64,000 bases of DNA. Source: Candidatus Aenigmatarchaeota archaeon. GTDB taxonomy: Archaea; Aenigmatarchaeota; Aenigmatarchaeia; CG10238-14; SCSR01. Positions 1,582 through 56,713 of the stretch are shown piece by piece. The notes below the pieces were generated by a model. That model had not been told where the DNA came from. It saw nothing but the letters and a program-made list of their open reading frames with translations, and ran no database searches. Within the stretch, counting starts at the first letter, position 1, and each line of letters starts with the position of its first letter. Location: assembly GCA_018920185.1 (NCBI GenBank), contig JAHLMT010000001.1, positions 78,702 to 142,701 on the forward strand, written 5' to 3'. The translations under genes were made by a program, and so were the position numbers.

Positions 1582-2613
1582 TTACCTTATCCAGACTACT
1601 AAATCAGCTCTTTCAACTGCACAAATGCAACAATGACTCATCGACGGACCACTTTCACAACTAGCGAACCATGTTGCAAACCCACAGGAATCTCCTCTAT
1701 CTCCATTAGACCAACCATTAACTGCACAAGAGCAACCTGTACTTTGAGAATATATGGGACTACCCCATGAACTTGTGTAAGCTGCATCTGAAAGTAATTT
1801 TATATCGGCATTAATATTGTTTTCAAAAGCACGTTTTTGAAAAAACTCTTTTCCTTCACTTCCGCATCCATTTGATGACCAATCATTCGGGTTGCTTATT
1901 TTATTAAAAATAACTGCAGTAACGGGATTATTCATATCATATCTGTTTTGTTGCCTCCAGTAAGCACGTGTAATTTTTTCACCATTATTCAAAATAGTCT
2001 TTATATTGGAATCTGATAACTTAACTGAAGTAGGTGAATTAGGATTAGTTACACTTCCCTTTGCTCCTACGTCCCAACAGTTATTAGCTTCTGACGCTTT
2101 ACATACAGCGGCTAATGTCCATCCCCCATCATTAGTAGACATATCACAATAGACTTGGACATCAACGCCGTCCAGTTTTAAGGTATAAACACCATCACCC
2201 ACAGAACCACCGTTATTCAGAATTTCCAAACAACTTTTACCAGTTCCAGGACCAGTAATAGTCAATATAGCTGTACTGCACATGCTTGATGTGCACAGGC
2301 GTAGAGTGTGAGTCCCAACGGATAACATTGAAGGTATTAATGGTATTATTTCAGCAACCTGTCCAGGTTGTATGGGTTGCATTTTTAAATTTACAGACTG
2401 CCCGTCTAAAGTTGCTGTAATTTTAGTTATTTCTGATGTCCCATCATTTCTTATAGTTACCTTACTTCCCGTTGAACCTATTACAGAAAATGGGGTAGCT
2501 AATCTTGAAGTAAATGTCCCAGAAATATAAAGGTAAGCTGTTCCTGCTAGAGCAATTGTAATCATCAGCATTAAAATAACACCAATAACAGTGGAAATTC
2601 CTTTGTTTTCCAT
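1582..2613 (-). CDS. type IV pilin-like protein (class III signal peptide) with C-terminal fibrinogen-related (FReD-like) Cys-rich domain
   Basis: The N-terminus MENKGISTVIGVILMLMITIALAGTAYLY is an archaeal prepilin (DUF361-type) signal. The C-terminal half contains GVYTLKLDGVDVQVYCDMSTNDGGWTL, matching the FReD hallmark (VYCDM.TDGGGWTV), followed by a Cys-rich tail. Confidence 0.7.
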   Translation of the reverse strand: MENKGISTVIGVILMLMITIALAGTAYLYISGTFTSRLATPFSVIGSTGSKVTIRNDGTSEITKITATLDGQSVNLKMQPIQPGQVAEIIPLIPSMLSVGTHTLRLCTSSMCSTAILTITGPGTGKSCLEILNNGGSVGDGVYTLKLDGVDVQVYCDMSTNDGGWTLAAVCKASEANNCWDVGAKGSVTNPNSPTSVKLSDSNIKTILNNGEKITRAYWRQQNRYDMNNPVTAVIFNKISNPNDWSSNGCGSEGKEFFQKRAFENNINADIKLLSDAAYTSSWGSPIYSQSTGCSCAVNGWSNGDRGDSCGFATWFASCESGPSMSHCCICAVERADLVVWIR

Positions 2614-2811
2614 AATTAACTATTGGAATGAATACAAAAAAGTTTTTGACATTACAACCATATCCAAGTACTATTTACCAAGACCGATTTGTTTCCATTT
2701 GATTAAATCATATAAACCGGATTATTTCAGATAATTTTCATCTTTTTTCTCAAATTAGCTATTTTACCCAACTTACAGATAAAACCAAAAGATTTAAATA
2801 TGTGTATGTAG

Positions 2812-2832
2812 GTATATTTAATATTCTTTTTA
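2812..2832 (+). promoter_or_regulatory. putative TATA/BRE region for the thermosome gene (leaderless transcript)
   Basis: AT-rich TATA-like elements (TATATTTAATATTC, CTTTTTATAG) lie about 20-35 nt upstream of the ATG at 2847. No Shine-Dalgarno spacing is needed if the transcript is leaderless. Confidence 0.25.
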
Positions 2833-2846
2833 TAGACGGTGAAATA

Positions 2847-4499
2847 ATGGTTCAAGCTATGGTCGGTCAATTAGGAGGTCAGCCAGTCTTAATTCTCCCA
2901 GAAGGTGCTGTGAGAACTACGGGTAGAGATGCTCAGAAAAACAACATAGTAGCTGCCAAAGCAGTAGCCGACGCGGTAAGAACTACACTCGGTCCAAAAG
3001 GTATGGACAAGATGCTTGTCGATTCTATTGGTGACATCGTCATCACTAACGACGGCGTAACAATTTTGGAAGAAATGGAAATCGAACATCCTGCTGCAAA
3101 GATGATGGTTGAGGTTGCCAAAACACAAAACGAAGAAGTTGGCGATGGCACTACATCAGCTGTTATAATCGCAGGAGAATTGTTGAAAAAAGCCGAAGAA
3201 TTACTGGAACAGGATATACACCCCACAGTAATCACAAAAGGATTCAAAATTGCAAAAGAAGAAGCATTAAAAATCATGGAAGATATAGGAAAGCCAGTCT
3301 CTCTTGACGATACAGAAATTCTGAAGAAAATAGCTATTACAGCAATGTCCGGAAAATCTGTTGAACGCGCATCACCAAAGATAGCTGAACTTGTTGTTGA
3401 AGCTGTCAAGACTGTTGCAGAGACTAGAAACGGTAAAGTTCACGTCGACACAGACAACATCAAAAGAGAAAAGAAACACGGCGGCAGTTCGGAGGATACA
3501 GAATTGGTTCGTGGAATTGTTATAGATAAAGAAGTTGTCCATCCTGCAATGCCAAAGATTGTTAACGATGCAAAGATTGCCTTATTGGATGTTGCTTTAG
3601 AAGTGAAGGAAACCGAGACTGATGCTGAAATTAGAATCACATCACCAGAACAAATGCAAGCTTTCATCGAACAAGAACAGAAAATGTTGAAGGACATGGT
3701 TGATAAAGTTGTATCATCAGGTGCGAATGTTTTGATTTGCCAGAAAGGAATCGATGACATTGCACAGCATTATCTTGCTAAAAAGAAAATCCTTGCATGC
3801 AGAAGGGTGAAGAAATCTGATATGGAGGCTCTTGCTAAAGCGACTGGTGGGAGAATAGTTTCTAATCTGGAAGATTTATCGCCAGAAGATTTAGGTTATG
3901 CCAAGGTTGTTGAAGAAAGAAAAATTGCAGGAGAAGCAATGACATTTATAAGAGATTGCAAAGATCCCAAAGCCGTGACAATATTAGTTCGTGGTTCTAC
4001 AGAACATGTAGTCGATGAAGTAGATAGGAGTGTGGAAGATGCCATAGGTGCCGTTGCTTCTGCTGTTGAGGTGGGTAAAGTTGTTCCTGGAGCAGGTGCT
4101 CCCGAAGCAGAAGTTGCAAAGAGATTAAGAAAATTTGCTGAACAATTTTCGGGACGAGAACAGCTTGCAATAAAAGCATTTGCAGATGCTTTAGAAGTAA
4201 TTCCACGCAGTTTAGCTGAGAATGCAGGCTTAGATCCTATTGATATACTGGTTGCATTAAGAGCTGCGCACGATCAAGGCAAAGTCTCATACGGTGTTGG
4301 CGTTTTTGACGGTGTTGCTATTGACGCTTTCGACAACGGTATTATTGAACCTTTGAAAGTAAAGACACAAGCAATTAAATCAGCTGCAGAAGCTGCAGAG
4401 ATGATATTGAGAATTGATGATGTGATTACGGCAAGTAAGCTTAGTAAGGGCGGCGGTCCAAGTACACCCCCTGGAGCAAGCGAAGGCGGAGAAGAGTAA
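2847..4499 (+). CDS. ths: thermosome subunit (group II chaperonin)
   Basis: The N-terminus [30 protein letters not shown] is typical of thermosomes, and the protein carries the TCP-1/cpn60 motif [12 protein letters not shown]. The start moved to the internal ATG at 2847, in frame with the ORF called from 2802. The C-terminal GGM-like tail is also present. Confidence 0.93.
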
Positions 4500-4883: not shown

Positions 4884-5360
4884 GTGAGCATGCCCATCAG
4901 AGACGAGGAAGAATTTGAACTAGTTCCTTTATCGCCGATAAGAAGATTAGAAAAAAGAATTGAAAAGCTCGAAAATACTGCCGGTGGTGTTGATGTCAGA
5001 GAATTTTTCCGTGAACTCATTGCAATAATTAGAATGAATCAAGAAATTGTGGATGAGTTAGCTAAATCAAGCGATGCTCTACGAGTTGAACTTGCAAAAC
5101 TACCGGCAAAGATAGATGAAGTTATAAAAAATCTCAATGAGTTGATATCCTATATTAGAGCAGCAGCAACAGAAGAAGCTATGCAAATTCCCCCAACTGT
5201 ATTTCAACCATTAGCAGAAAAACTTGATCAATTGATAGCAGCTAATCAAAAAATAATAGAAAACAATGAAAACATCTCAGGTTTGTTAGAGTCGATAGAA
5301 AAGAAACTCAAGCCGCCATTACCACCAAAACCACCGATACTAAGACCTATACAGAGATAA
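4884..5360 (+). CDS. hypothetical coiled-coil protein with Pro-rich C-terminus (first gene of pilus locus?)
   Basis: A 158 aa, strongly heptad-like ORF ending KLKPPLPPKPPILRPIQR. The start may instead be the ATG at 4890. Confidence 0.5.
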   Translation: MSMPIRDEEEFELVPLSPIRRLEKRIEKLENTAGGVDVREFFRELIAIIRMNQEIVDELAKSSDALRVELAKLPAKIDEVIKNLNELISYIRAAATEEAMQIPPTVFQPLAEKLDQLIAANQKIIENNENISGLLESIEKKLKPPLPPKPPILRPIQR

Positions 5361-5413
5361 ACCACAGTTGATTAGTTATAAATCTAAAAAAACTAAATAA
5401 ATTAAAGGATTGT

Positions 5414-6061
5414 ATGAACTCAAAAGCTGTATCCACAGTTATTGCAGCTGCACTTATTGTTGCAATTGCTCTAGGTTTAACATCTACAGCTTATATCTGG
5501 GGAACCCCGTTGATAGAAAAAAGACAAGAAGCTTCAGTTACAGAAAGAGTTTACAACCAATTCTTACAAACTAACCAAAATTCACTACCAAAAATAATAG
5601 AAGATGTTGCAAATAACAGAGGTGTAAGAAGCTTTACAATTGGTACAAATGGTGCATGGGTATTAAACGCTAATGAAGACTCGATAGAATTTACCTTTAC
5701 AAGTAAGACATCCAATGTAGCAGCAAATATGCAGAATCCTATATCACTAACTCCAGGTGTTCAGTGTACAGGCCAACAGAATTCACCATCACCAGCAGTT
5801 GGCGTATTAGGTCAGGACAGCTCTTCGGTTGTCTGCGTGTCGGCTACTACAGTCGGTGATACTTTTGAAATTAAATACAAAATCTGGTTCCGTGAGTTAG
5901 TAGATAATCCATTTTCACCAACTCAAAAATTCAAAATTGATTTAGAAAAAGATCCAACAGGACTTGACAGATCTTCAAGTAAAACAATAAAAATAACTTT
6001 TGGTGAGAGCGTAACAAGCGGAACATTAATTACAAAGAAAATACTAATTCTACTTATATGA
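5414..6061 (+). CDS. archaeal type IV pilin-like protein (class III signal peptide)
   Basis: The N-terminus MNSKAVSTVIAAALIVAIALGLTSTAYIWG matches the K-A-V-S-T-V-I archaellin/pilin N-terminal domain. Its end overlaps the next ORF (ATGA). Confidence 0.75.
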   Translation: MNSKAVSTVIAAALIVAIALGLTSTAYIWGTPLIEKRQEASVTERVYNQFLQTNQNSLPKIIEDVANNRGVRSFTIGTNGAWVLNANEDSIEFTFTSKTSNVAANMQNPISLTPGVQCTGQQNSPSPAVGVLGQDSSSVVCVSATTVGDTFEIKYKIWFRELVDNPFSPTQKFKIDLEKDPTGLDRSSSKTIKITFGESVTSGTLITKKILILLI

Positions 6062-6477
6062 AAGCTGTCTCTCTAATAGTCCAATTCGTTATTTTCTTTA
6101 CTATAGGCTTGTCATTTTTCTTATTAATAGGTAATCTCTTCAAATTTCAATCAGATTTGATTAAGCGCGACATACTCGAATCTGGTTCAACACTTTCTTT
6201 AAATCAACTATCGGCTGCTTTAATCAACGCAGTAAACTCATGCAAATCGTGCAATAACGTATCTATAAAAATTGATCAGAAACCTATTGCTGAATACACT
6301 CAAATTTATCAACTATCTGATAATTTAATCCTTAAGATAGAACCAGAAAACAAAATAATCAAATCATCTTTGCATAACTTGAATTATTCAATAAATTCTG
6401 ACCCGACAGAATTTTCAGCATCTAAAACAATAACTTTAACATACGACAGAACCAACAATAAATTAGTGATCAAATGA
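6058..6477 (+). CDS. small pilin-like / FlaF-FlaG-like membrane-anchored protein
   Basis: MKAVSLIVQFVIFFTIGLSFFLLIGNL resembles a class III signal / N-terminal TM. The start is translationally coupled (4-nt overlap) to the flanking genes. Confidence 0.55.
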   Translation: MKAVSLIVQFVIFFTIGLSFFLLIGNLFKFQSDLIKRDILESGSTLSLNQLSAALINAVNSCKSCNNVSIKIDQKPIAEYTQIYQLSDNLILKIEPENKIIKSSLHNLNYSINSDPTEFSASKTITLTYDRTNNKLVIK

Positions 6478-8846
6478 ATCCAAGATTCTCTTTGTTCCAA
6501 AAATTAATCAAAGGCTATAGAATAGCAAAAGTAAGCGAATACATTGGAAAATCTGAGCCAGTCCTAGGACAACCAAAATACATTCCAAGTTTACCGAAGC
6601 CAACAACTGTAGGAGAAGTAGCTAGAGCTTTTAATCTGCCTACAACAATGGTAGAAAAACTCTATAATGAAATAAAACAAATCCAAAAACTATCAGAAGA
6701 GCCTGTCGGTGACCCCACAAGTCTAAAAAATAAAATTGAAGATGTGGAGAAAATTGCAGCAAATACAGGAGTGTACATCCTCCCGGAGGTATACAATGCT
6801 ATCAAGCAAGCCAAAGAAAAAGTTCGTGAACTAGAGTTAAACACAGTATCTGATATAGATCCTTTACTTGAAGCCAGAAAGCAGATAGAAGAACTAGAAA
6901 AAGAAAAGAGAATTTTAGAAGCTGCCAAAGCTGCAGCGATGGAAAAATATTATAATCGTGAAATTGACGAAGCTTCTCTTAAAAATATAATTGATAACTA
7001 TGAACAGAGACTTGTTGAAAATGATGTAAGAATTAAAAGCTGGAAAGAAGAGCTAGAAAAATTAGAAAAAGAACCCCAGCTTGCAAGAAAAACTCCAGAA
7101 GAAAAGAAAGAAAGATTTCTTGCAGTCATGCAAGCAGTCAAATCGGGTGAAACAAAAGCTTTTGCACAAATCTCAAAAATACCTCTACCTACATTGCAAC
7201 CTTTAGTAAACGTTCAAATTCCACAACCTTCGACTCCACCACAACTCTTTAAACCAATAAAAACTGTAGAAAGAATAGAAGGGCTTGAAATACCACGCGC
7301 TCCTAAAAAGGCAATAAAAATAAGTTCAATTGAAACCGAAGAAGAAACACCTCATATTTCTCTTACCTATCCTTTAATTCCTAGATTTCCATCAAAAGGC
7401 GACTATGTTTTTGCTTATGCAAAAATTTTCTGGGACGATACTAACAACAGATATGTTTACTATCTTGTTGAGCCAAAACTAACAGAAAAACTGAAAGAAA
7501 TTTATCAAAAAGTTAAGGAAATGCTAGAACAAAGACTTGACATAGATTTTTCTAAGCTGAAGAAAATCGAAGCAAAAGAATTTCTCGATAAACAAATCGA
7601 CGATATTTTGAACTACTTTAACTTCATTCTAACCAAAAAAGAAAAGGAAATTTTGAGATATTACATGTTCAGAGATTTCACAGGCTTAGAGATGATAGAA
7701 CCCTTAATTCAAGATCCCAATATCGAAGATATCAGTTGTGATGGTGTTGGAATCCCAATATTCGTTTTCCACAGAAATCCCGATATAGGGTCAATAGCAA
7801 CAAATATAAAATTCATTAACTCAGACCAACTAGATTCGTTTATAATAAAATTAGCACAAATGTGTGGAAAATCTATATCTATATCAGAACCTTTACTTGA
7901 CGGAACATTACCAGACGGTAGTAGAGTACAAGCAACTCTAGGAACCGATATTGCAAGAAGAGGTTCGAATTTTACAATCAGAAAATTTACAGAAATTCCT
8001 TTAACACCCGTACATTTCATGAACTATGGAACAGTGGACTCAAGCATTCTAGCATACTTATGGTTTGTTATCGACTACGGTAGAAGTGTTCTGATTTCTG
8101 GTGGTACGGCTTCAGGCAAGACTTCTATGTTAAATGTTCTTTCTCTCTTTATCAGACCTGAGAAAAAGATAGTATCAATTGAAGATACTGCCGAGTTAAG
8201 ATTACCACATTATCACTGGGTACCTGTAGTTGCAAGAACTGCTATTGGAACGGAAGGTAAAGGTGAAGTTGATATGTTTGAACTGTTAAGAGAAAGTTTA
8301 CGACAGAGACCCGATTATATTGTAGTAGGTGAAGTTAGGGGGAAAGAAGCATATATCTTATTTCAACAAATGAGTACAGGTCACCCTTCTCTCGCAACCA
8401 TTCACTCTGAAAATATGGCACGACTAGTCAACAGACTAACAACACCACCTATTTCATTACCTGCAGGATTGATCACAGCTTTAGATATAGTGATTTTTCT
8501 TGCACGTATGAAATATAAAAACAAATTTGTCAGAAAAGTCGTTGAAATTGACGAGATTGTTGATTTTGATCTAAACACAAACACACCAATCATCAATCAA
8601 ATCTTTAAATGGGATCCCAAAACTGATAAGTTTGAAATAACAGGTAAAAGCATCTCACTCAAGAAAGTATCGGATTTTACAGGAATTTCTGAAAAAGATA
8701 TCAAAGATGAAATCGAACGAAGAATTGTTGTACTAGAGTGGATGAAGGAGAATAACATAACAGATTATCGAGATGTTCATAGAATATTTTCTATTTATTA
8801 TAACGATCCAGCAAGCTTATTATCATATATACAAGGTGCTGGGTAG
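6474..8846 (+). CDS. FlaI/GspE/VirB11-family secretion ATPase (type IV pilus assembly ATPase) with about 290 aa N-terminal coiled-coil extension
   Basis: Walker A LISGGTASGKTSMLNVL, the Asp/His boxes, YIVVGEVRGKEAYILFQQMSTGHPSLATIHS, and a FlaI-like N-domain (YPLIP.FPSKGDYVFAYAKIF). The first roughly 290 aa are coiled-coil-rich with no FlaI counterpart. Confidence 0.85.
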   Translation: MNPRFSLFQKLIKGYRIAKVSEYIGKSEPVLGQPKYIPSLPKPTTVGEVARAFNLPTTMVEKLYNEIKQIQKLSEEPVGDPTSLKNKIEDVEKIAANTGVYILPEVYNAIKQAKEKVRELELNTVSDIDPLLEARKQIEELEKEKRILEAAKAAAMEKYYNREIDEASLKNIIDNYEQRLVENDVRIKSWKEELEKLEKEPQLARKTPEEKKERFLAVMQAVKSGETKAFAQISKIPLPTLQPLVNVQIPQPSTPPQLFKPIKTVERIEGLEIPRAPKKAIKISSIETEEETPHISLTYPLIPRFPSKGDYVFAYAKIFWDDTNNRYVYYLVEPKLTEKLKEIYQKVKEMLEQRLDIDFSKLKKIEAKEFLDKQIDDILNYFNFILTKKEKEILRYYMFRDFTGLEMIEPLIQDPNIEDISCDGVGIPIFVFHRNPDIGSIATNIKFINSDQLDSFIIKLAQMCGKSISISEPLLDGTLPDGSRVQATLGTDIARRGSNFTIRKFTEIPLTPVHFMNYGTVDSSILAYLWFVIDYGRSVLISGGTASGKTSMLNVLSLFIRPEKKIVSIEDTAELRLPHYHWVPVVARTAIGTEGKGEVDMFELLRESLRQRPDYIVVGEVRGKEAYILFQQMSTGHPSLATIHSENMARLVNRLTTPPISLPAGLITALDIVIFLARMKYKNKFVRKVVEIDEIVDFDLNTNTPIINQIFKWDPKTDKFEITGKSISLKKVSDFTGISEKDIKDEIERRIVVLEWMKENNITDYRDVHRIFSIYYNDPASLLSYIQGAG

Positions 8847-9715
8847 TGGGATTTTACACAAGAGTAGCATTCACACTTTTTGGCAGATTTAGTGATAATT
8901 TAATAGTTTTCTTTCCAGATTTGTCAGATAATTTGAAAAAAGCTGGAATGAAAATTTCTAGTAAAGAGTACATAAGTACAGGAATATTAACATCTTTTTT
9001 ATTTTTCCTCATTGAAATACCATTGCTATCTTTTATTTTTGGTATGTTTTTCCGAAGTGTGATATTAAGTGTAATAACAGCAATTACATTATCTGCACTG
9101 CTTACAATAATAATTTTTTATTTGTTTACAAAATATCCCAACACAGTTGTGGCAGATAGAGCAAAAAAGATAGACACTTATCTACCGTTTGCATCTTTAT
9201 TTCTCTCAACAATTGCTGGTACAAAATTACCTCTAGATCAAGTTTTTAAATTTTTTGTAAAAAATAGCAAATACGGAGAAGTAACCAATCAATTTCAAAT
9301 GATAACTAACGATGTGGAAGCTTTTGGGTTGGACGTTCATACAGCATTGCAAAGAGCTATAGATAGAACACCATCAAAAAAATTGAGAGAAATGTTATAC
9401 GGATTGTTATCTACATCACTCTCAGGCGGAGATGTTGCTATTTATTTGAGAGAAAAAGCTGCAAATCAAATGGAAGATTATAGGCTATCAATAACTCAAT
9501 TCTCTAAAAAATTGGTTTTATTTATCGAGATTTATCTCACAGCAATAGTTTTAGGTGCTATATTTTTTGTAATCCTTACATCGATATTTTCTGGAATTTC
9601 TGGAGTTTCCAGCAACATAATTTTATTACAGTCTCTGATTATTTTTATTTTCCTACCACTGCTGTCACTTCTTTTCATTCTTTTAGTTAAAATATCTTCG
9701 CCAATAGGAGAATGA
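8846..9715 (+). CDS. type II secretion system F-domain membrane protein (TadB/FlaJ N-half-like)
   Basis: A polytopic membrane protein with the T2SSF motif region LREMLYGLLSTSLSGGDVAIYLREKAANQMEDYR. It has a GTG start overlapping the ATPase stop. A downstream ATG (MKISSK) is an alternative start. Confidence 0.7.
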   Translation: MGFYTRVAFTLFGRFSDNLIVFFPDLSDNLKKAGMKISSKEYISTGILTSFLFFLIEIPLLSFIFGMFFRSVILSVITAITLSALLTIIIFYLFTKYPNTVVADRAKKIDTYLPFASLFLSTIAGTKLPLDQVFKFFVKNSKYGEVTNQFQMITNDVEAFGLDVHTALQRAIDRTPSKKLREMLYGLLSTSLSGGDVAIYLREKAANQMEDYRLSITQFSKKLVLFIEIYLTAIVLGAIFFVILTSIFSGISGVSSNIILLQSLIIFIFLPLLSLLFILLVKISSPIGE

Positions 9716-10641
9716 AGATGAAAAAACTAACAATACGACAAATTTCATTTATTACAATAGGAATATCTGCCGTGTTGATAATTACAGGTATAATAACTTC
9801 TGACGCAGGTATAATAGGTAATTCAATAATTCTTTCGACCTTTATAATAGCTGCACCAATTTTATACATCCGTTACAAACGGCTTAGAGAATTTAAAGAG
9901 ATGGAAGAGAAATTTCCGAACTTTCTACGTGATTTAGTGGAGTCGATAAGAGCGGGCCTTCCTCTTCACAAAGCTATAATTGCTGCAAGTAAGATAAACT
10001 ACGGGACTCTTTCAAAAGAAGTAAACAAGATGGCAAATCAACTATCATGGAGAATGCCTATAGATAAAGTGTTGAGTCAATTCGCCCACCGAGTAAAGAA
10101 CAGTAAAAGAATGGCTTCTGGAATACAGGTAATTCTGCAATCTTACCTATCTGGTGGAGATGTGATTTCTACAATTGATTCTGTTGCTGATTCTCAACTG
10201 ACATTAATCGAAGTTGAAAAAGAAAAATCTTCTGCACTCAGTCAATATGTTGTTGTCATGTATGCCATATCTTTAATCTTCATAGGTATAGTAGTAGCTG
10301 TAAACAAGCTAATGATACCTATATTTGGCTTATCGCAGCAGGGAACTGAATTTGGTTTATTAAATCCTTGTGACACCTGTGTTGGATTAGAATGCTCTGT
10401 ATGTTCGTTATTCGAAACGACATCTGGTAACATATTCGGATTAGATCCAAAAAGTATAGGAGCATATTATACAGCTTTATTTTTCTTTATGAGTATCACA
10501 CAATCAATATTTTCTGGTTTAGTTGCAGGTCAAATCAGTGAGGGTTCTGCAATAGCTGGTGCAAGACACAGCCTGATTTTAGCTAGCATAACTTTCGGAA
10601 TATTCAGTATTTTAGTGAGGTTAGGTTTGCTTGGCTCGTAA
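9712..10641 (+). CDS. type II secretion system F-domain membrane protein (TadC/FlaJ C-half-like)
   Basis: T2SSF domain FLRDLVESIRAGLPLHKAIIAASKINYGTLSKEVNKMANQLSWRMPIDKVLSQFAHRVKNSKRMASGIQVILQSYLSGGDV, multiple TM segments, and an ATGA overlap with the upstream gene. Confidence 0.75.
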   Translation: MKMKKLTIRQISFITIGISAVLIITGIITSDAGIIGNSIILSTFIIAAPILYIRYKRLREFKEMEEKFPNFLRDLVESIRAGLPLHKAIIAASKINYGTLSKEVNKMANQLSWRMPIDKVLSQFAHRVKNSKRMASGIQVILQSYLSGGDVISTIDSVADSQLTLIEVEKEKSSALSQYVVVMYAISLIFIGIVVAVNKLMIPIFGLSQQGTEFGLLNPCDTCVGLECSVCSLFETTSGNIFGLDPKSIGAYYTALFFFMSITQSIFSGLVAGQISEGSAIAGARHSLILASITFGIFSILVRLGLLGS

Positions 10642-11143
10642 AGCTCAACTTGCATTTGATTTTTACGTTTCTTTACTCGTCTTTATAGGAATTTTAGGTT
10701 ACTTAACATTTCAACTTTTTCAAATAATTCCAGCAAGTTCTGGTAATTTAAAAGAAGAATCTTTGCGAATAGAAGCTTATCAAATATCAGAATTGCTAAT
10801 CAATGATGGTGGACATCCTATTGATTGGCACACGGTAGGTGATATATCTAATATAAAAAGAATTGGTCTGTCTGACTCAAACAAAAATATAACCAACTTT
10901 TTACTAAGAGGAAAGATAGATCGCTTCAAAACAATATGCAATAACAATTTTAATAATATTAAAAATCTGTTGGATATTAAAGACGAAATAAATGTTACTA
11001 TAATAGAACATGGGCCAAATGTCGATGTGAGCAGTTGCGCATCCAATCAAGCTAAAAAAGTAAGTTTTAGTGTAAGTCGGACAGTTCTAATTAGTGGAAC
11101 TTCCTATCCAACTGAAATTATTGTAGAGGTGTGGAAAAAATGA
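10631..11143 (+). CDS. pilin-like / minor pilin candidate
   Basis: An N-terminal hydrophobic segment MARKAQLAFDFYVSLLVFIGILGYLTF follows a basic residue. The ORF overlaps both neighbours within the pilus operon. Confidence 0.5.
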   Translation: MARKAQLAFDFYVSLLVFIGILGYLTFQLFQIIPASSGNLKEESLRIEAYQISELLINDGGHPIDWHTVGDISNIKRIGLSDSNKNITNFLLRGKIDRFKTICNNNFNNIKNLLDIKDEINVTIIEHGPNVDVSSCASNQAKKVSFSVSRTVLISGTSYPTEIIVEVWKK

Positions 11144-12492
11144 AAGGTCAAATATCAATTCTTGAAGCTATTTTTTCAGCTATAATCCTCTTTATCGCAT
11201 TTAACATGATGATAACTGTTGAGGAGTATCAGACCAAATGGAAAGAATCCTTAAACTTACTCCAAGGAAGGGACGCACTAATTACTGCAGATAGGTTAGG
11301 TAGACTTCACGATTTTGTATTTTCTGACTCATTTGCAAGAGAGTTTCTCAATAAATTAGATGCATTAAAAGATGTTGTAATAAAGAATGAAACTCGAGGA
11401 ACTCTTAAAAATAGACTTTATGTTGCATGCAACTGTACGGATGATAAAAGAGATTATCTACAAAACATTCTTAATGATGTGAAATTTAACACAAGAAAAA
11501 TATCTGCTGTAGTCTGTTCTACCAATTTGTTAACAATAAACAATTGCGGGTCGAATGCAAAATATCCCGATGTACTGGTTATTTGGAGATATGATCCTTT
11601 GGAAGGTGCTGTAAGAAATGCTCTGATAGATTTTGTGAAAGATGGGAATGGTTTAATTGAAATAGCAGATGTACCCAATTCAAGAGTTGACGGGCAAGGG
11701 GACGATGACCATGAGGGGCAGAAAATAATTTTCGGAATAAAATCCATCCAAGGTAATTACCCCAACAATCCAATTGAATTCTTAAAACCTAGAAATTCTT
11801 CGGTGTTACCATACCAATCTTACAAATGGTTTTATCATGTACCTTATTTGTTGCAAGGTACTAGCTCTGAAACAATACCGGTGGAGGATGGAATTGCATC
11901 TTGTTCAACCGAAGGTATGAAAGGTAAAGGTAATTTCAGATTTCGAAATACAGACTACACATTTTGGATATGTGGTACGACTTCTGTATACTGGGATACA
12001 AATGGAAATAATAAGGCGGATAAAGTTGTGACCCCGAGAAATAAATTCTCAATAGGTAATTCTAACTTTTTCTTAAACTATATAGACAGTCCAAGAGAAA
12101 TAAGGATTTCCTTCAAACCGGATTATCTATTCAACAATTTCATTGGTGGGAATAATGTAAACAAACTAGCTCCGATCGACAACGATAAAAACAAGGTTCT
12201 GCTCTCGATGGGTTTCTGGGATCAACAAAGAGAAAAGCCAATAGCAGCAATAATATTCAATGGAACGGGAAATGGAATCACAGCTTGGGTAGCGGATTTC
12301 GCCAGAGATGGATTGACAAATACAGGTGATGATCACAAACAACTTCTAGCCTCATTAATCTTATCAATGGCAAACAAAAGAACTAAAGAAACATTCCAAC
12401 AAATTGGTCAAACAACTTCTTACATAAATGTAAATAACACAGACATCCTAGAAATATATAAAATATATTTGAGCATCGGTAAACCTTTCTAA
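11131..12492 (+). CDS. large pilin-like protein (possible pilus tip or adhesin subunit)
   Basis: The N-terminus MEKMKGQISILEAIFSAIILFIAF (KG|Q.. with Glu near +5/+6) is prepilin-like. It is followed by about 420 aa of Asn/Gly-rich extracellular domain with no recognisable enzyme motifs. Confidence 0.55.
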   Translation: MEKMKGQISILEAIFSAIILFIAFNMMITVEEYQTKWKESLNLLQGRDALITADRLGRLHDFVFSDSFAREFLNKLDALKDVVIKNETRGTLKNRLYVACNCTDDKRDYLQNILNDVKFNTRKISAVVCSTNLLTINNCGSNAKYPDVLVIWRYDPLEGAVRNALIDFVKDGNGLIEIADVPNSRVDGQGDDDHEGQKIIFGIKSIQGNYPNNPIEFLKPRNSSVLPYQSYKWFYHVPYLLQGTSSETIPVEDGIASCSTEGMKGKGNFRFRNTDYTFWICGTTSVYWDTNGNNKADKVVTPRNKFSIGNSNFFLNYIDSPREIRISFKPDYLFNNFIGGNNVNKLAPIDNDKNKVLLSMGFWDQQREKPIAAIIFNGTGNGITAWVADFARDGLTNTGDDHKQLLASLILSMANKRTKETFQQIGQTTSYINVNNTDILEIYKIYLSIGKPF

Positions 12493-19283: not shown

Positions 19284-21650
19284 ATGATAACAAAAGTTAG
19301 GTTAAAAAATTGGCGATCACATCTGAATTCTACTTTAGAATTCTCCAAAGGAACTAATGCTTTGATAGGAATTATGGGAAGTGGGAAAACAAGCATTCTC
19401 AATTCTATATGTTTTGGTCTTTTTGGGACAACTCCTGAGATACAATCAAGAAAACTTAAATTAGACGACTTGATAATGAATAAACCTTATTCAAAAGATA
19501 CAGCTGAAGTCGAAGTATTCTTCAGAATCAACGGAAATGAATATTCTGTCAAACGCATCATAGAAAAGAAAAAAGGTACAACCTATTCAGAATTGCGTGA
19601 AAATGGTAAGCTGATAGAAGCGCCAAGCACACAGAGAGTTAACGAACTTGTAGAAAAAATTTTGAAAGTTGATTACGAGCTTTTTAGTAAAGCTATTTAT
19701 TCAGAACAAAATGCTCTCGATTATTTTTTAACTATTCCTAAAGGTCAGAGGATGAAAAAAATAGACGAACTTCTGATGATTGATAAATTTGAAAAAGCCC
19801 GAAGTAATACAATCTCATTGATAAATAAAATATCCGAGAAGAAATCAACAATGGAATCATTACTTGGTAAAGTGAACTTGACAGAATTGCAACAAATGGT
19901 TACCAACATTAAATCGTCACTTGAAAATATTATACTAGAAAAATCTCAATTAGAGAAAGAATTAAAACAAGTTGTATCGACACGCCAGGCTATAGAAAAT
20001 GAACTGAAAATTTTATATAAAACCAAAGAAAATCTCGAAATTTTGAAAAGAGATGAAGCAAGTTTGTCGAGTGCTGTCAATGAACTTTCTTCTTCTATTA
20101 AAGAATTAGAAGAATCTGTAAAAAATGCTGATAAAGAAGAGATAGAAAAAAATGTAAAATCTTTTACTGATATACTTGATAAACTTGAGAATACTATTCG
20201 TGAAAAACAAGAAGAATACCAAAAACTTGCTGACCAGTATTCAAAAGCAAAAGCTGAGGCAGATATTTATAAAAAAGAAACTATAGCTCGACTGCAGAAT
20301 GAACTTGAAGAAAAACTACAACTCCAACGGGATGCTGAAAAAATTAAAAAACAAATAGGTGATGATGCAGATGCGGCACTCGAAAAAAAGAGGGGACTTG
20401 TAGAAAAGTATGTAGGCAAGATAGAAGCTCTTAGAATAAAAATCGAAGATTTATCAAACATAATAGATCAACTTTCGTCAATTAAAGCAAAGTGCCCTAT
20501 TTGTGAATCTAAAATAACAGAAGAGAAGAAAGTAATTCTTATAAAACAAAAGAAAATGCAGATAAAGAATTTGTACGAAGAAATGGAATATGCAACAAAA
20601 CAAAAACAAATAAATGAACAAGAGCTTAGAGATCTGGAGGTCGCCGTCAATAAGTTGAATAAAATACTCGATGCAATAGAAGGACTGAGCGATCTAAAGA
20701 ATAATCTTGAAAATACTCAACATATTTATGCTATTCTTGAAGAAAGTTCTATAAAGCTTGAGCACGAATTGAAAACGGTGAAAAATGAAATTGAGAAAAT
20801 GAACAAAACTCTGACCGAAGCACGTAATCAAAAACAAAAATTGGAATTAATGCTTTTACAGATACGTGATTACGAATCTAAAAAATCCAGAATCGATACA
20901 CTAATCAAACAGAGAGAAGAAATCATCCATCATTTGAAAAGTTTAGAGAAGACAATTTTTGGACGGGACTTACATGCTGTGGAAACTGAACTGAGAAATT
21001 TAGTTGGAAAAGAAAAAGAAATTTCAACAAGAATATCAGCATTAAATCAGCTCCTATCTGAAAGAGAATTTAGATTGAAAGATCTTGAATCGACTTTAAC
21101 TCAAGCAACAAAAGAAAAAGAAGAGATTAAGAAATTGGAGAATCTTATTATTCAATTAAGAGTTTTCGAAAAAGCGCTTGAAGAGACACAGATACAATTG
21201 CGACAGGAGTTTGTCACACTTGTTAATTATTCCATGAATCAACTATGGCAGACTCTGTATCCTTATCAAGACTTCACAGGAATAAGATTAAAAGTTGAAG
21301 AAGGAGATTATGTACTTCAACTATTATCAAGAAATGAATGGGTTAATGTTGAAGGTGTAGCATCTGGTGGTGAAAGAAACATAGCAGCTCTGACATTAAG
21401 AATTTCATTTTCGTTAGTGCTAGCACCGAATTTAAGACTACTTATTTTGGACGAGCCTACAGCGAATATGGATACCAAATCAATAAAGGTTTTAGCAGAT
21501 ACGTTACGCGAAAGAATCGGAGAATTTATAGATCAATGTTTCCTTATTACTCACCAAAGTGAATTGGAAGATGCTGTTACAGGATATGCTTATAGATTAG
21601 AAAGAGACAAATCAATCGATGGATATACGCAAGTTATACGGCTTAATTGA
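19284..21650 (+). CDS. rad50: Rad50 ATPase
   Basis: Walker A GIMGSGKTSILN, a long coiled coil with the zinc hook KAKCPICESK, the signature ASGGERNIAALTLR, and Walker B LLILDEPT. Confidence 0.93.
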   Translation: MITKVRLKNWRSHLNSTLEFSKGTNALIGIMGSGKTSILNSICFGLFGTTPEIQSRKLKLDDLIMNKPYSKDTAEVEVFFRINGNEYSVKRIIEKKKGTTYSELRENGKLIEAPSTQRVNELVEKILKVDYELFSKAIYSEQNALDYFLTIPKGQRMKKIDELLMIDKFEKARSNTISLINKISEKKSTMESLLGKVNLTELQQMVTNIKSSLENIILEKSQLEKELKQVVSTRQAIENELKILYKTKENLEILKRDEASLSSAVNELSSSIKELEESVKNADKEEIEKNVKSFTDILDKLENTIREKQEEYQKLADQYSKAKAEADIYKKETIARLQNELEEKLQLQRDAEKIKKQIGDDADAALEKKRGLVEKYVGKIEALRIKIEDLSNIIDQLSSIKAKCPICESKITEEKKVILIKQKKMQIKNLYEEMEYATKQKQINEQELRDLEVAVNKLNKILDAIEGLSDLKNNLENTQHIYAILEESSIKLEHELKTVKNEIEKMNKTLTEARNQKQKLELMLLQIRDYESKKSRIDTLIKQREEIIHHLKSLEKTIFGRDLHAVETELRNLVGKEKEISTRISALNQLLSEREFRLKDLESTLTQATKEKEEIKKLENLIIQLRVFEKALEETQIQLRQEFVTLVNYSMNQLWQTLYPYQDFTGIRLKVEEGDYVLQLLSRNEWVNVEGVASGGERNIAALTLRISFSLVLAPNLRLLILDEPTANMDTKSIKVLADTLRERIGEFIDQCFLITHQSELEDAVTGYAYRLERDKSIDGYTQVIRLN

Positions 21651-27819: not shown

Positions 27820-30156
27820 TCAACTCTCCGATATTAAAATTTTAGTTTTTTTACGTTTAAATTTGGAGACAAAGTTCTTAACTAAATCAAATAATCCTCT
27901 TTTTTCTTTGCTTACATACGTATATCCCACTTCGGGTTTGTATCCTTCTTTCACAGGCCAGAACAAATAAACTAAAATTCCGATAATAAATAGTATTAAC
28001 ACACCTGTAACTATCAACCATACCTTCGATGGTATTTCTACTTCCGTTTCTGTTGTTTCAAGCGCTTTCAACCGATTCTCAACTTCATTTATCAAAGCTT
28101 TTATAGTTTCGAATGTTTGATATGCTTGAAAATAGTTGTCGACATTTATATGATCTTCAGCTTGTTTTATCACAGCTTTAAGTTCTGATAATTTTTGCTC
28201 GACAGATTTCGTATCATTTATTTTACTCTTTAACTCACCCAATTTATTCTCTAACTTGCTAGTATCCAGCTTATACAAAGCCAATGTATTATTTATTTTT
28301 TCTTTCGTTTCATTTGACGGTAGAACTCTCAAAGTAAAATCTTGTGATATAGTAACATTACCGCTGCTTACATTAAATTTAGCGGAATAATCTTTTACAT
28401 CAACATTTCCTATATTGAAAGTTATCGTGAAAGTTCCTGTAGCACCACCGGAGATGTTCTTCAATTGATTAACCGAATACCAGTTTTTGTCTATCCCAAT
28501 TAATTCTAAGGTGATATCTTGCACAGTAGTTCCAGTATTCTTAACCTTTACCTCGGAACTTGCAGTAGAGTTCTGAACTATTTCTATTAACGAAGGTACC
28601 TGTACAAAACTTATGCCTGAAGTAGGTCCAGGCTTTATAATTAATGTATTTTTAGCAGTATCTGAAGTGTAATTCTGATTAGTAGTGCTGTTACATACAT
28701 ACTCGTATATAGAACCAGCTGCAAATGTCTGGATATCAGGATTCGATACTAATGTACCATTTCTGTACAATTTCGCTGTGAATTCAGGCAAGCTTACAGC
28801 ACAACTAACATTTGTTTGTATTGGTGAATCGAGAATCCATTGAGGTGTTATGCTTAAAGTAACTGGTACTATAGCACGGTTAATTGTGAAAGAATTCAAA
28901 CCAGTTAAGTTAAACATGTGATTCGAATAGTTGCCGTATATTTTCCATGTGTATGTTCCGGCTGGAAAAGTTATGTTATAGTAATAATTAGTTGTAGAGG
29001 TGTTTGACATAGTATAAATAGTTGTTGTGCCCGACCAGTCGCCTTGGATTAAAACATTATATAGCTTTGGATCAGTGGCAAATGTTATACTAATTGTGCC
29101 TACTGTAGTTGAATATGTAGATGGTACAGATGTCGATGTTGAATATCTGGGTACTGTAGCTACAAAATAAGTCACAGAATTGCTTGAAAAGTTTGCATTA
29201 CCTGTTACACTAATGGTATAATTATGTAATCCGATACTTGTTAAAGTATCTGAACGCTGTGTAGGATTGGGGTCAGAAGAAAAAATAATTACACCATCTC
29301 TAGCTATTGAAATACTACAATCCGCTTGTGTGCACGAAGCGTTAGCGGTTATATTAACAACAGTACCGTTAATTGTAGTAATATTAGAGTTCAAAGAACC
29401 ATTTAAAAAAACATTTAAGGTGTTTACGCCTTTTCTTACAATGTAAGTTAGTTGATCTGTTGAGTTGAAAGTATTGTTAGTGTCGTTGGCATAAACTCTC
29501 CACATGTATGTTCCAGCTGGTAAATCGGTAAATTTCATATAGTAAACATTGCCCGAACTACTCATGCTATCGTTATGTAGTGAAGCAGCACCAGTAAAAT
29601 TATGTTCCAACAAAACATTTGATATAGCACTATTATCAGTCCAAGTTATGTTAAACCAATACTCCTGTCTAGGTATGTAAGATGAATTTGTACTGGGAGA
29701 TGTGACAATGTTAGAATATTTGGGCGCTGTCACATCGAAGATGGCTAAACTCACATTACTCGAGTTAAACACACCATTAGCATCAAGTGTAGATATATTG
29801 AAGTTATGGTTTCCGATAACAGGAGGTGTATCAACTCTGAAAGCAAAATATTCAGTAGCACCAGCACCAACAATACCTATTGAAGTAGTATTAACCCAAG
29901 ATGCTGGATCTGTATACGCAAAACGACTTGTTGTAGTAGATGGGCTACCTGCAAAAACAAAACCCGGAGGCAAAGTTATATTTACATGAGTTATATTTAT
30001 TGCACCTGTGTTTGTAACACTGAAGTTAACTAATTGACTGGATAGACCAGCTTCCAAGCTGGTGGGAATTGCACTTGCTGTGAATGAGACAGCTAGGGTA
30101 TTGTTAATAATGACGAACAACGTAATCGCAAAAATGCAAATAAACCATTTATTCAT
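27820..30156 (-). CDS. large secreted Asn/Ser/Thr-rich surface protein with C-terminal coiled coil and TM anchor (candidate S-layer glycoprotein)
   Basis: The signal peptide is MNKWFICIFAITLFVIINNTLAVSFTASA. The protein has very many N-x-S/T sequons (roughly 35-40 by eye), a C-terminal heptad region, then the TM segment VWLIVTGVLILFIIGILVYLFWP and a basic tail. Confidence 0.7.
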   Translation of the reverse strand: MNKWFICIFAITLFVIINNTLAVSFTASAIPTSLEAGLSSQLVNFSVTNTGAINITHVNITLPPGFVFAGSPSTTTSRFAYTDPASWVNTTSIGIVGAGATEYFAFRVDTPPVIGNHNFNISTLDANGVFNSSNVSLAIFDVTAPKYSNIVTSPSTNSSYIPRQEYWFNITWTDNSAISNVLLEHNFTGAASLHNDSMSSSGNVYYMKFTDLPAGTYMWRVYANDTNNTFNSTDQLTYIVRKGVNTLNVFLNGSLNSNITTINGTVVNITANASCTQADCSISIARDGVIIFSSDPNPTQRSDTLTSIGLHNYTISVTGNANFSSNSVTYFVATVPRYSTSTSVPSTYSTTVGTISITFATDPKLYNVLIQGDWSGTTTIYTMSNTSTTNYYYNITFPAGTYTWKIYGNYSNHMFNLTGLNSFTINRAIVPVTLSITPQWILDSPIQTNVSCAVSLPEFTAKLYRNGTLVSNPDIQTFAAGSIYEYVCNSTTNQNYTSDTAKNTLIIKPGPTSGISFVQVPSLIEIVQNSTASSEVKVKNTGTTVQDITLELIGIDKNWYSVNQLKNISGGATGTFTITFNIGNVDVKDYSAKFNVSSGNVTISQDFTLRVLPSNETKEKINNTLALYKLDTSKLENKLGELKSKINDTKSVEQKLSELKAVIKQAEDHINVDNYFQAYQTFETIKALINEVENRLKALETTETEVEIPSKVWLIVTGVLILFIIGILVYLFWPVKEGYKPEVGYTYVSKEKRGLFDLVKNFVSKFKRKKTKILISES

Positions 30157-51983: not shown

Positions 51984-52379
51984 TTAAACACAAGTTACAG
52001 AAGCTGTGATGCTCCTTCCAGTTGGTGGGGTGATTCTATAAATACAGTCCCTTGTCCCACTTCCTAAGCATGTATCATCAAAGTTAACAGTGGTACCGGG
52101 TTGTATGGTTATGGATTGTGTGCTTACTGTATTGGTACAAGGTGTCCCTGTATCTCCAGCAGGTGCAGTCTGCAAACATGTAAATGACGATATAGTCTCA
52201 GTACCTGCATTTCTTAAAACCAATCTAACAGATGTCCCAGAACAAGAACCCTCAACAACTTCTAAGCCTTGTGACGTACGTGTATAAACGCCAGAAATAT
52301 TCAAGTAAGCCATTCCTCCAAGTGCGACGACAATCAACAAAATCAGAATAGTAGCTATAATAGTTGATATACCTTTCAT
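51984..52379 (-). CDS. archaeal type IV pilin (class III signal peptide), Cys-containing
   Basis: The N-terminus MKGISTIIATILILLIVVALGGMAYLNISGVYT is paralogous to the N-terminus of the 1582-2613 protein. The mature domain is 131 aa and Thr/Gly-rich. Confidence 0.75.
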   Translation of the reverse strand: MKGISTIIATILILLIVVALGGMAYLNISGVYTRTSQGLEVVEGSCSGTSVRLVLRNAGTETISSFTCLQTAPAGDTGTPCTNTVSTQSITIQPGTTVNFDDTCLGSGTRDCIYRITPPTGRSITASVTCV

Positions 52380-56590: not shown

Positions 56591-56713
56591 GCCCCTATAG
56601 CTCAGTTTGGATAGAGCAACGCACATAAAGGTTGAACCTTCTATCTATCTGAAAAGAAGGATTGATAAAAGGATGAAAGGCGGAGGTCGTGGGTTCAAAT
56701 CCCACTGGGGGCA
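56591..56713 (+). tRNA. intron-containing tRNA (123 nt precursor), isotype unresolved
   Basis: An acceptor stem GCCCCTA/TGGGGGC with discriminator A, D-arm GCTC-AGTTTGGATA-GAGC, variable loop AGGTC, and T-arm GTGGG-TTCAAAT-CCCAC. About 49 extra nt lie in the anticodon region, including the hairpin CCTTCT...AGAAGG. The mature anticodon stem could not be reconstructed unambiguously. Confidence 0.6.

Follow-up and report, generated by a model that had tools for sequence, protein, structure and literature searches.

The locus and its genes

The window analysed here, i.e., the whole stretch of 64,000 nucleotides of Candidatus Aenigmatarchaeota DNA, holds an open reading frame at 1582..2613 that runs from ATG to stop and encodes 343 amino acids in the ORF list. 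The sequence-only reading had these limits exactly, and to them we add the strand, which is minus. The encoded protein, hereafter the target, is a modular archaeal type IV pilin, in which a class III signal, a helix and a beta-sandwich are joined by a linker to a disulfide-rich head of 218 amino acids (residues 126-343). Its gene is divergent from a thermosome gene (2802-4499), and a filament-assembly operon (4884-12492) lies 2.3 kb from it, comprising genes for a coiled-coil protein, two class-III-signal proteins, an ATPase, two T2SSF proteins and two more membrane or class III proteins. The features on which the text relies are given below, where FReD stands for fibrinogen-related domain.

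1582..2613, minus strand: whole gene, modular pilin of 343 aa (stop codon at 1582-1584; from the ORF list and an identical NCBI protein of an Aenigmatarchaeota MAG)
2599..2613, minus strand: predicted leader peptide MENKG, residues 1-5 (TIGR02537 match over residues 3-34; FlaFind-type motif K4-G5-I6-S7-T8-V9)
2512..2598, minus strand: hydrophobic N-terminal alpha-helix, residues 6-34 (AF2 helix 8-34; similarity to the small pilin and to the LamG-pilin P0019)
2257..2490, minus strand: globular beta-sandwich of the pilin, the shared 'chassis', residues 42-119, with C107/C112
2239..2256, minus strand: Gly/Pro linker TGPGTG from the pilin module to the head, residues 120-125
2104..2238, minus strand: FReD A subdomain, residues 126-170, C128...YC156DM...GGW165T (NF040941, PF00147, phmmer, hhalign)
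1585..2103, minus strand: remaining head, residues 171-343, with a FReD-like central sheet and a family-specific distal region (terminal strand ...ERADLVVWIR)
1621..1734, minus strand: most conserved block of the head, residues 294-331 (near-invariant or invariant in 33 archaeal and bacterial sequences)
5414..6477, plus strand: two class-III-signal proteins, candidate pilins or minor pilins, 5414-6061 and 6058-6477 (FlaFind-type scan; weak UpsA similarity)
6474..8846, plus strand: type IV filament assembly ATPase, FlaI/PilB-like, 790 aa (PF00437 T2SSE, 120.8 bits)
8846..10641, plus strand: two platform-protein genes, 8846-9715 and 9712-10641 (PF00482 T2SSF, ~51 bits each)
10631..12492, plus strand: operon-distal genes 10631-11143 (170 aa, N-terminal TM) and 11131-12492 (453 aa, class III motif; motif scan)
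51984..52379, minus strand: small pilin of 131 aa, N-terminus closely related to that of the target; candidate for the major pilin of a filament in which the target would sit (TIGR02537 21.3 bits, cutoff 20)

Between the target stop and a convergent HTH/PDDEXK-like gene (218-1126) there is a gap of 455 bp (1127-1581), long for a compact genome, in which no Rfam match, credible ORF or terminator-like site was found. Elsewhere in the window, an Rfam tRNA match on the plus strand (56591-56713) takes up 123 nt for a model of 71 positions, which suggests an intron-containing archaeal tRNA.

A fusion of this kind could come from a chimeric or frameshifted ORF, in which MAG misassembly joined an unrelated pilin start to a bacterial-type domain, and the occurrence of the head family in bacteria too would fit such an origin. 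However, seven independent MAG contigs (up to 288 kb) carry the identical protein in the identical gene context, and approximately 18 full-length homologs (32-64% identity) keep the whole architecture down to the lowest of these identities, therefore the gene is not an assembly artefact. Furthermore, GC content is ~33% throughout the window, with no compositional break at the target gene. Contigs, homologs and uniform GC together effectively refute misassembly, to which we give a negligible chance. At NCBI the exact match is titled 'MAG: fibrinogen-like YCDxxxxGGGW domain-containing protein [Candidatus Aenigmatarchaeota archaeon]'.

The pilin module and its filament machinery

The N-terminus of the target, MENKGISTVIGVILMLMITIALAGTAYLY, had been read as a class III (prepilin) signal, and the model searches bear this out. 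In the NCBIfam scan residues 3-34 matched TIGR02537 at E 9.1e-11 (41.1 bits, cutoff 20), and a FlaFind-type motif was found using a regular expression with a hydrophobicity filter, the pattern reportedly being that of Szabo et al. 2007. In MENKG|ISTVIGVILMLMITIALAGTAYLY a short charged leader ending in [KR][GA] is followed by ~20 hydrophobic residues, and cleavage by a prepilin peptidase is predicted after G5. The comparison with archaeal pilin models that had been proposed for this region gave a divided outcome: TIGR02537 was well above its cutoff, whereas Pfam PF07790 Pilin_N was a near miss (22.9 bits, E 1.6e-4, cutoff 25.2), i.e., the NCBIfam model of the Pilin_N region passes though the Pfam model is sub-threshold.

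The target has the archaeal pilin fold, in which, as in archaeal pili of solved structure, a long N-terminal helix leads into an Ig-like beta-sandwich at the C-terminal side, and its matches to solved structures show that the module resembles filament-forming subunits over almost the full length of those subunits. The N-terminal alpha-helix of type IV pilins is the assembly interface in the filament core. A likeness of the target to the small pilin at 51984-52379 had also been claimed, and was recovered by alignment to residues 4-67 of the target, with 43% identity over 68 aa (E 6e-7).

Cognate machinery is encoded close by, in the form of a T2SSE ATPase (6474-8846) and two T2SSF genes (8846-10641). 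In a 2026 preprint, an ATPase with a split platform protein is given as the organisation of TFF 'system 1' and of DPANN subsystem-4A loci, which the ATPase and two platform genes of the window operon match (10.64898/2026.04.22.720090). No Pfam family was found for the operon-distal genes (10631-12492). The operon is not near the target orthologs P0002 and P0007, as such, its proximity to the target gene is supportive, not diagnostic. In the ATPase, the T2SSE core covers residues 443-658 only, and an N-terminal extension of ~310 residues is Lys/Glu-rich and coiled-coil-like; the gene ahead of the class III pair (4884-5360) also has a coiled-coil appearance.

The ATPase bears on a reading in which the class III signal would tether a ligand-binding protein at the cell surface or in a short pseudopilus, for nutrient capture and not as an adhesin, as in the Sulfolobus Bas system. 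The likeness is that of a ligand-binding type of protein with a prepilin-type signal, binding by the target being argued from analogy. According to archaeal TFF surveys, substrate-binding proteins of Sulfolobales use class III signals. A need for nutrient capture would also fit DPANN archaea, which rely on scavenged metabolites. The ATPase also matches BasE, at 209.7 bits, far below the cutoff of 1000; however, it fits FlaI far better, which is its closest NCBIfam model at 415.8 bits (below the cutoff of 550). Moreover, the substrates of the bindosome are ABC-type solute-binding proteins that lack a pilin beta-sandwich, whereas the target has the full beta-sandwich of filament subunits and no transporter context, with no ABC transporter adjoining its gene. 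Nutrient capture of this type is, in our judgement, quite unlikely.

An anchored receptor has also to be considered, in which the helix would remain uncleaved as a signal-anchor and the Ig-like domain would be a stalk that keeps the head clear of the membrane or S-layer, no pilus being involved. Cleavage and polymerisation of the target are predictions from sequence, no prepilin peptidase (PibD/FlaK/EppA, peptidase A24) was found among the 26 window ORFs scanned with Pfam, Pilin_N is sub-threshold, and the linkage to the pilus operon is not kept in P0002 and P0007; each of these would sit well with an anchor. Against them stand the leader and helix, which score above the class III model cutoff and are common to bona fide short pilins and to the class III proteins of the operon. 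Furthermore, in a CPR bacterium (see below) this head is joined to a canonical prepilin N-terminus of bacterial type, N-methylation motif included, which argues that display on a pilus is the context under selection. We regard an uncleaved anchor as improbable.

The fibrinogen-like head and its relatives

The fibrinogen-related call of the sequence-only reading was built on GVYTLKLDGVDVQVYCDMSTNDGGWTL at residues 141-167, and for this block the call held. The A-subdomain pattern ...SC...YCDM...GGGWT... is present with its conserved Cys pair (C128 and C156) and DM...GGW165T, the match to NF040941 GGGWT_bact has E 2.3e-15 (56.3 bits, curated cutoff 30; PGAP assigns the same name), and Pfam Fibrinogen_C PF00147 is above cutoff (24.1 bits, cutoff 22). 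Taken with the TIGR02537 match (E 9.1e-11), these scores are far beyond chance. Of the 14 cysteines, 12 lie in the head and two in the first 120 residues, i.e., the pilin domain.

Past the A subdomain the sequence evidence ends. The PF00147 search that had been suggested for the head succeeded for the A subdomain and not for the rest of the ~220-residue domain, with profile positions 2-48 of 221 aligned; a whole-domain match covering the A, B and P subdomains was not obtained. The A2 profile aligned with PDB FReDs over at most positions 3-104 of 215, and phmmer from the head matched XEEL/intelectin/fibrinogen. With ITLN1 (query sequence identical to 4wmq_A), hhalign gave 97% probability over 53 A-subdomain columns only, and no intelectin-wide homology including the ligand-binding C-terminal third was found. 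In this third lies the ITLN1 ligand site (N260, E262, H263, E274, W288, Y297), a segment for which no counterpart was detectable in the alignment to the target head. A PDB sequence search gave no match for the distal half, and the Ca2+/ligand motifs of the FReD P subdomain are not identifiable in the head, as that region has no sequence alignment. As sequence likeness to FReDs and intelectin is confined to the A subdomain and the distal half lacks a PDB match, the head cannot be said to conserve the canonical Ca2+/ligand pocket.

The modelled head has both the three-dimensional fold of FReDs and an overall similarity to the fold of intelectins (X-type lectins). The label 'FReD-like' given to the target earlier is thus right for its modelled structure and does not extend to sequence beyond the A subdomain. 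In structural alignments to FReDs, identity is 15-19% and ~70-85 of 224 residues are not superposed. Compared with FReDs (FGL1, fibrinogen beta/gamma, angiopoietin-like proteins, ficolins), the distal part of the target is family-specific and has six extra Cys, and compared with intelectins (ITLN1 4wmq, Xenopus XEEL 4wmo, lamprey serum lectin 7e1e) the head is ~60 residues shorter. With the FReD fold and A subdomain present and a full-length sequence match to FReDs or intelectins absent, the head is most aptly placed in a prokaryotic branch of its own within the FReD/intelectin superfamily. In this head the A subdomain and central sheet would form the conserved scaffold. The family-specific distal region, with its GWSN...CE.GP..H.C block, is the site that likely determines specificity. 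The block itself (residues 294-331: C294..G300-W301-S-N303..C310..W315..C319-E320..P323..H327.C329) may be a ligand or metal site or a disulfide knot. Many FReDs bind proteins rather than sugars.

A profile search with the head gave 8,422 matches at E <= 1e-3 among 1.84 billion representatives, and only ~30 clusters (50% identity) match all of its 215 positions. The target is a member of NF040941; however, this family models only the A block of 46 residues, whereas the head family of the target spans 215 positions. The matches to the whole head fall into four groups.

Group i: archaeal class-III-signal proteins of 340-434 aa (Aenigmatarchaeota, Nanoarchaeota, Diapherotrites, metagenomes)
Group ii: P0069, one bacterial-type pilin (PF07963 N_methyl 24.0 bits, cutoff 21.2; TIGR02532 17.8 bits, cutoff 16.3)
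Group iii: high-GC bacterial lipoprotein-like multidomain proteins with the domain at the end ('Deltaproteobacteria' and 'Gammaproteobacteria' MAG names)
Group iv: short stand-alone forms of 230-250 aa

The other strong matches come from giant proteins (1,000-8,000 aa), which match the profile 3-15 times, always within the A block alone. P0050-P0052, P0054 and others are among these giants, and P0050 has 15 A-block stretches in 4,522 aa. P0014 combines the chassis and A block of the target with a different distal part. The metagenomic proteins P0044, P0045, P0067 and P0075 (230-235 aa) are stand-alone heads that lack both a pilin and a signal sequence; three start with MGC..., and all four make up the most divergent clade of a rough tree. 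Two GGGWT domains, a divergent one upstream and a C-terminal one of the target's family, are seen in the high-GC bacterial lipoprotein-like proteins P0055, P0058, P0064, P0080, P0082 and P0089 ('Deltaproteobacteria' MAG names), and P0058 also has eight Stig1-like Cys repeats.

The helix insertion NNINADIKLLSDAA (14-17 aa) of the target's archaeal clade is found elsewhere only in the high-GC bacterial proteins, and archaeal and bacterial heads are intermixed in a rough NJ tree, which has no support values. The intermixing and the common insertion suggest that heads have been exchanged between archaea and bacteria.

Head swapping and a candidate role in attachment

The pilin module also carries heads of other kinds. 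Approximately 25 LamG-annotated proteins of Aenigmatarchaeota (P0019-P0043) match only the first ~25% of the target query. In pairwise comparison with P0019, residues 1-80 of the target are 64% identical to residues 1-80, and residues 81-119 are 77% identical to residues 296-332, where GTHTLRLCTSSMCSTAILTI is identical. In P0019-type proteins LamG is thus inserted in a loop of the target's pilin sandwich, whereas the target head is appended after the last strand; P0038 (LamG and CBM_4_9) has its chassis split as in P0019. These alignments indicate a scaffold (window 2257-2613, minus strand) to which a domain can be added in two ways, within a loop or at the C-terminus. The LamG-headed pilins share the chassis, phylum and presumed surface-recognition role of the target, and differ from it in having a LamG jelly-roll for a head and not a FReD-like one. 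DPANN LamG proteins are adhesion candidates (e.g., PMC7414124).

Similar exchanges are seen in other genomes. The ortholog P0007, from a Nanoarchaeota MAG (GCA_964360275.1, L006 10001-12106), is directly followed by a paralog whose class III N-terminus (…KKSQAALEFLTTYGWAFLIILIMIGALSYFGILSPSKLLPNRCNFGPEIGCVDY…) is nearly identical to its own and whose head is CBM_4_9-like (weak Pfam match). On the 324-kb contig of P0069 (L007, ENA ERZ27297473 k141_398198), three adjacent pilins (7388-11251) have one bacterial prepilin chassis (SFTL.ELLIV.AIL...) with LamG, a divergent GGGWT and a full head of the target's family, respectively, and a fourth LamG pilin is located 8 kb off (19386-20480). The LeuRS of this contig shares 79% identity with a protein of Candidatus Colwellbacteria, and its named top matches are all Parcubacteria or Patescibacteria, therefore we assign the contig to a CPR bacterium. 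Across related genomes the pilin scaffold is retained and its head varies (loop LamG, CBM-like, other GGGWT), suggesting that the recognition modules form a repertoire.

The target has no N-X-S/T sequons, where 4.9 are expected by shuffling (P ~0.005), and seven of its orthologs also have none where ~2-6 would be expected; this is not true of every ortholog, P0006 having 13. By contrast with the 16 expected, a 778-aa secreted protein at 27820-30156 (minus strand), which has a signal-like N-terminal sequence, contains 37 N-glycosylation sequons; it probably is a surface protein or S-layer-like and carries much glycosylation, and the cell probably glycosylates its own surface. The only Pfam match of this protein is pullulanase X25-like (28.9 bits). 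Avoidance of glycosylation by the target would suit a glycan-binding module, though this is only suggestive.

In our view the target is probably cleaved and joins a pilus as a tip or low-abundance subunit, where its head binds a ligand on a partner cell for attachment. A prepilin peptidase encoded elsewhere would cut after G5, and the N-terminal helix would co-polymerise with a small major pilin, e.g., the 131-aa protein at 51984-52379. Given its bulky head, the target would probably enter the filament in low abundance or at the tip. From there the head would stick out of the pilus and bind a ligand at the surface of another cell. By analogy with ficolins and intelectins this ligand may be a glycan or acetylated group, or else it is possibly a protein, and such binding would attach the DPANN cell to its host or partner. 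Whether the target sits at the tip or in the shaft, and with which pilin it partners, we purely infer.

If the target were instead the major shaft pilin, every subunit would be headed and the whole filament coated as a multivalent 'lectin brush'. Its pilin module is complete and resembles filament-forming subunits over almost all of their length, and the beta-sandwich is the outer surface in solved archaeal T4P, so that a C-terminal appendage could face outward; the tolerance of the chassis for LamG loop insertion and C-terminal fusion also suggests that both sites are surface-exposed. However, a head of 218 aa makes heavy steric demands on a pilin of 115 aa, and the small 131-aa pilin with a related helix in the same genome is a more conventional major subunit. 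In addition, modelling put bacterial modular pilins at the tip (PMC8179133, PMC9934059). A headed shaft is therefore unlikely, and we retain the tip or low-abundance subunit as the preferred reading.

Modular pilins, i.e., a pilin module with a functional domain that is not of the filament, are well catalogued in bacteria, with >1,200 in 264 architectures (Raynaud et al. 2021, PMC8179133). Dataset S1 of that survey lists eight bacterial proteins with IPR012902-IPR002181 (pilin and fibrinogen C-terminal domain) and two more with an extra domain. The nearest analogues with experimental backing are those of S. sanguinis, where PilC has a ConA-like lectin module and PilB a vWA module, and these adhesins are in a tip complex (PMC8179133, PMC9934059). 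The target is of the same design, as residues 1-119 form a small pilin module that is followed by the short linker TGPGTG and a FReD-like head, a grafted binding domain of a kind not confined to pili. Unlike the bacterial proteins, its module is archaeal, with a TIGR02537-type signal, an Ig-like sandwich and no IPR012902 motif (Pfam and NCBIfam scans gave no N_methyl match for IPR012902/PF07963), and the archaeal chassis takes a LamG loop insertion besides C-terminal grafts. Archaeal-type N-termini are outside the survey (PMC8179133) because it was keyed on the bacterial IPR012902. Two archaeal TFF surveys make no mention of fibrinogen, lectin or LamG modules on pilins, and our literature search found no paper that joins such pilin modules with DPANN. 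The modular-pilin design is thus already known and the target already auto-annotated in part, and the architecture reported here is well supported.

A wider proposal, which we offer tentatively as possible rather than likely, is that DPANN and CPR share horizontally exchanged lectin-like heads (FReD-like, LamG, CBM-like), which each lineage would mount on its own pilin scaffold through C-terminal grafts or loop insertions. Head-swapped pilins, in tandem or as paralogs, would then be a host-recognition cassette that sets partner range, and the GWSN...CE.GP..H.C heads a prokaryotic class of lectins, hitherto uncharacterised, with kinship to the ancestor of the FReDs and intelectins of animals.

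DPANN archaea and CPR bacteria are two radiations of ultrasmall, largely episymbiotic cells. The means by which DPANN archaea locate and keep hold of their hosts are poorly understood, with type IV pili the usual suspects. The target is a concrete candidate for this attachment, having a confidently modelled head, a conserved patch and natural head-swap variants, and it extends to archaeal pili the modular-pilin principle, which has been experimentally demonstrated only in bacteria. That a pilin of a CPR bacterium bears this head as well points to one solution common to both radiations. Furthermore, the head documents a compact branch of the fibrinogen/intelectin fold in prokaryotes, which is relevant to how these lectins of animal innate immunity arose, and if the head is a lectin, its ligand would help to identify the hosts of Aenigmatarchaeota.
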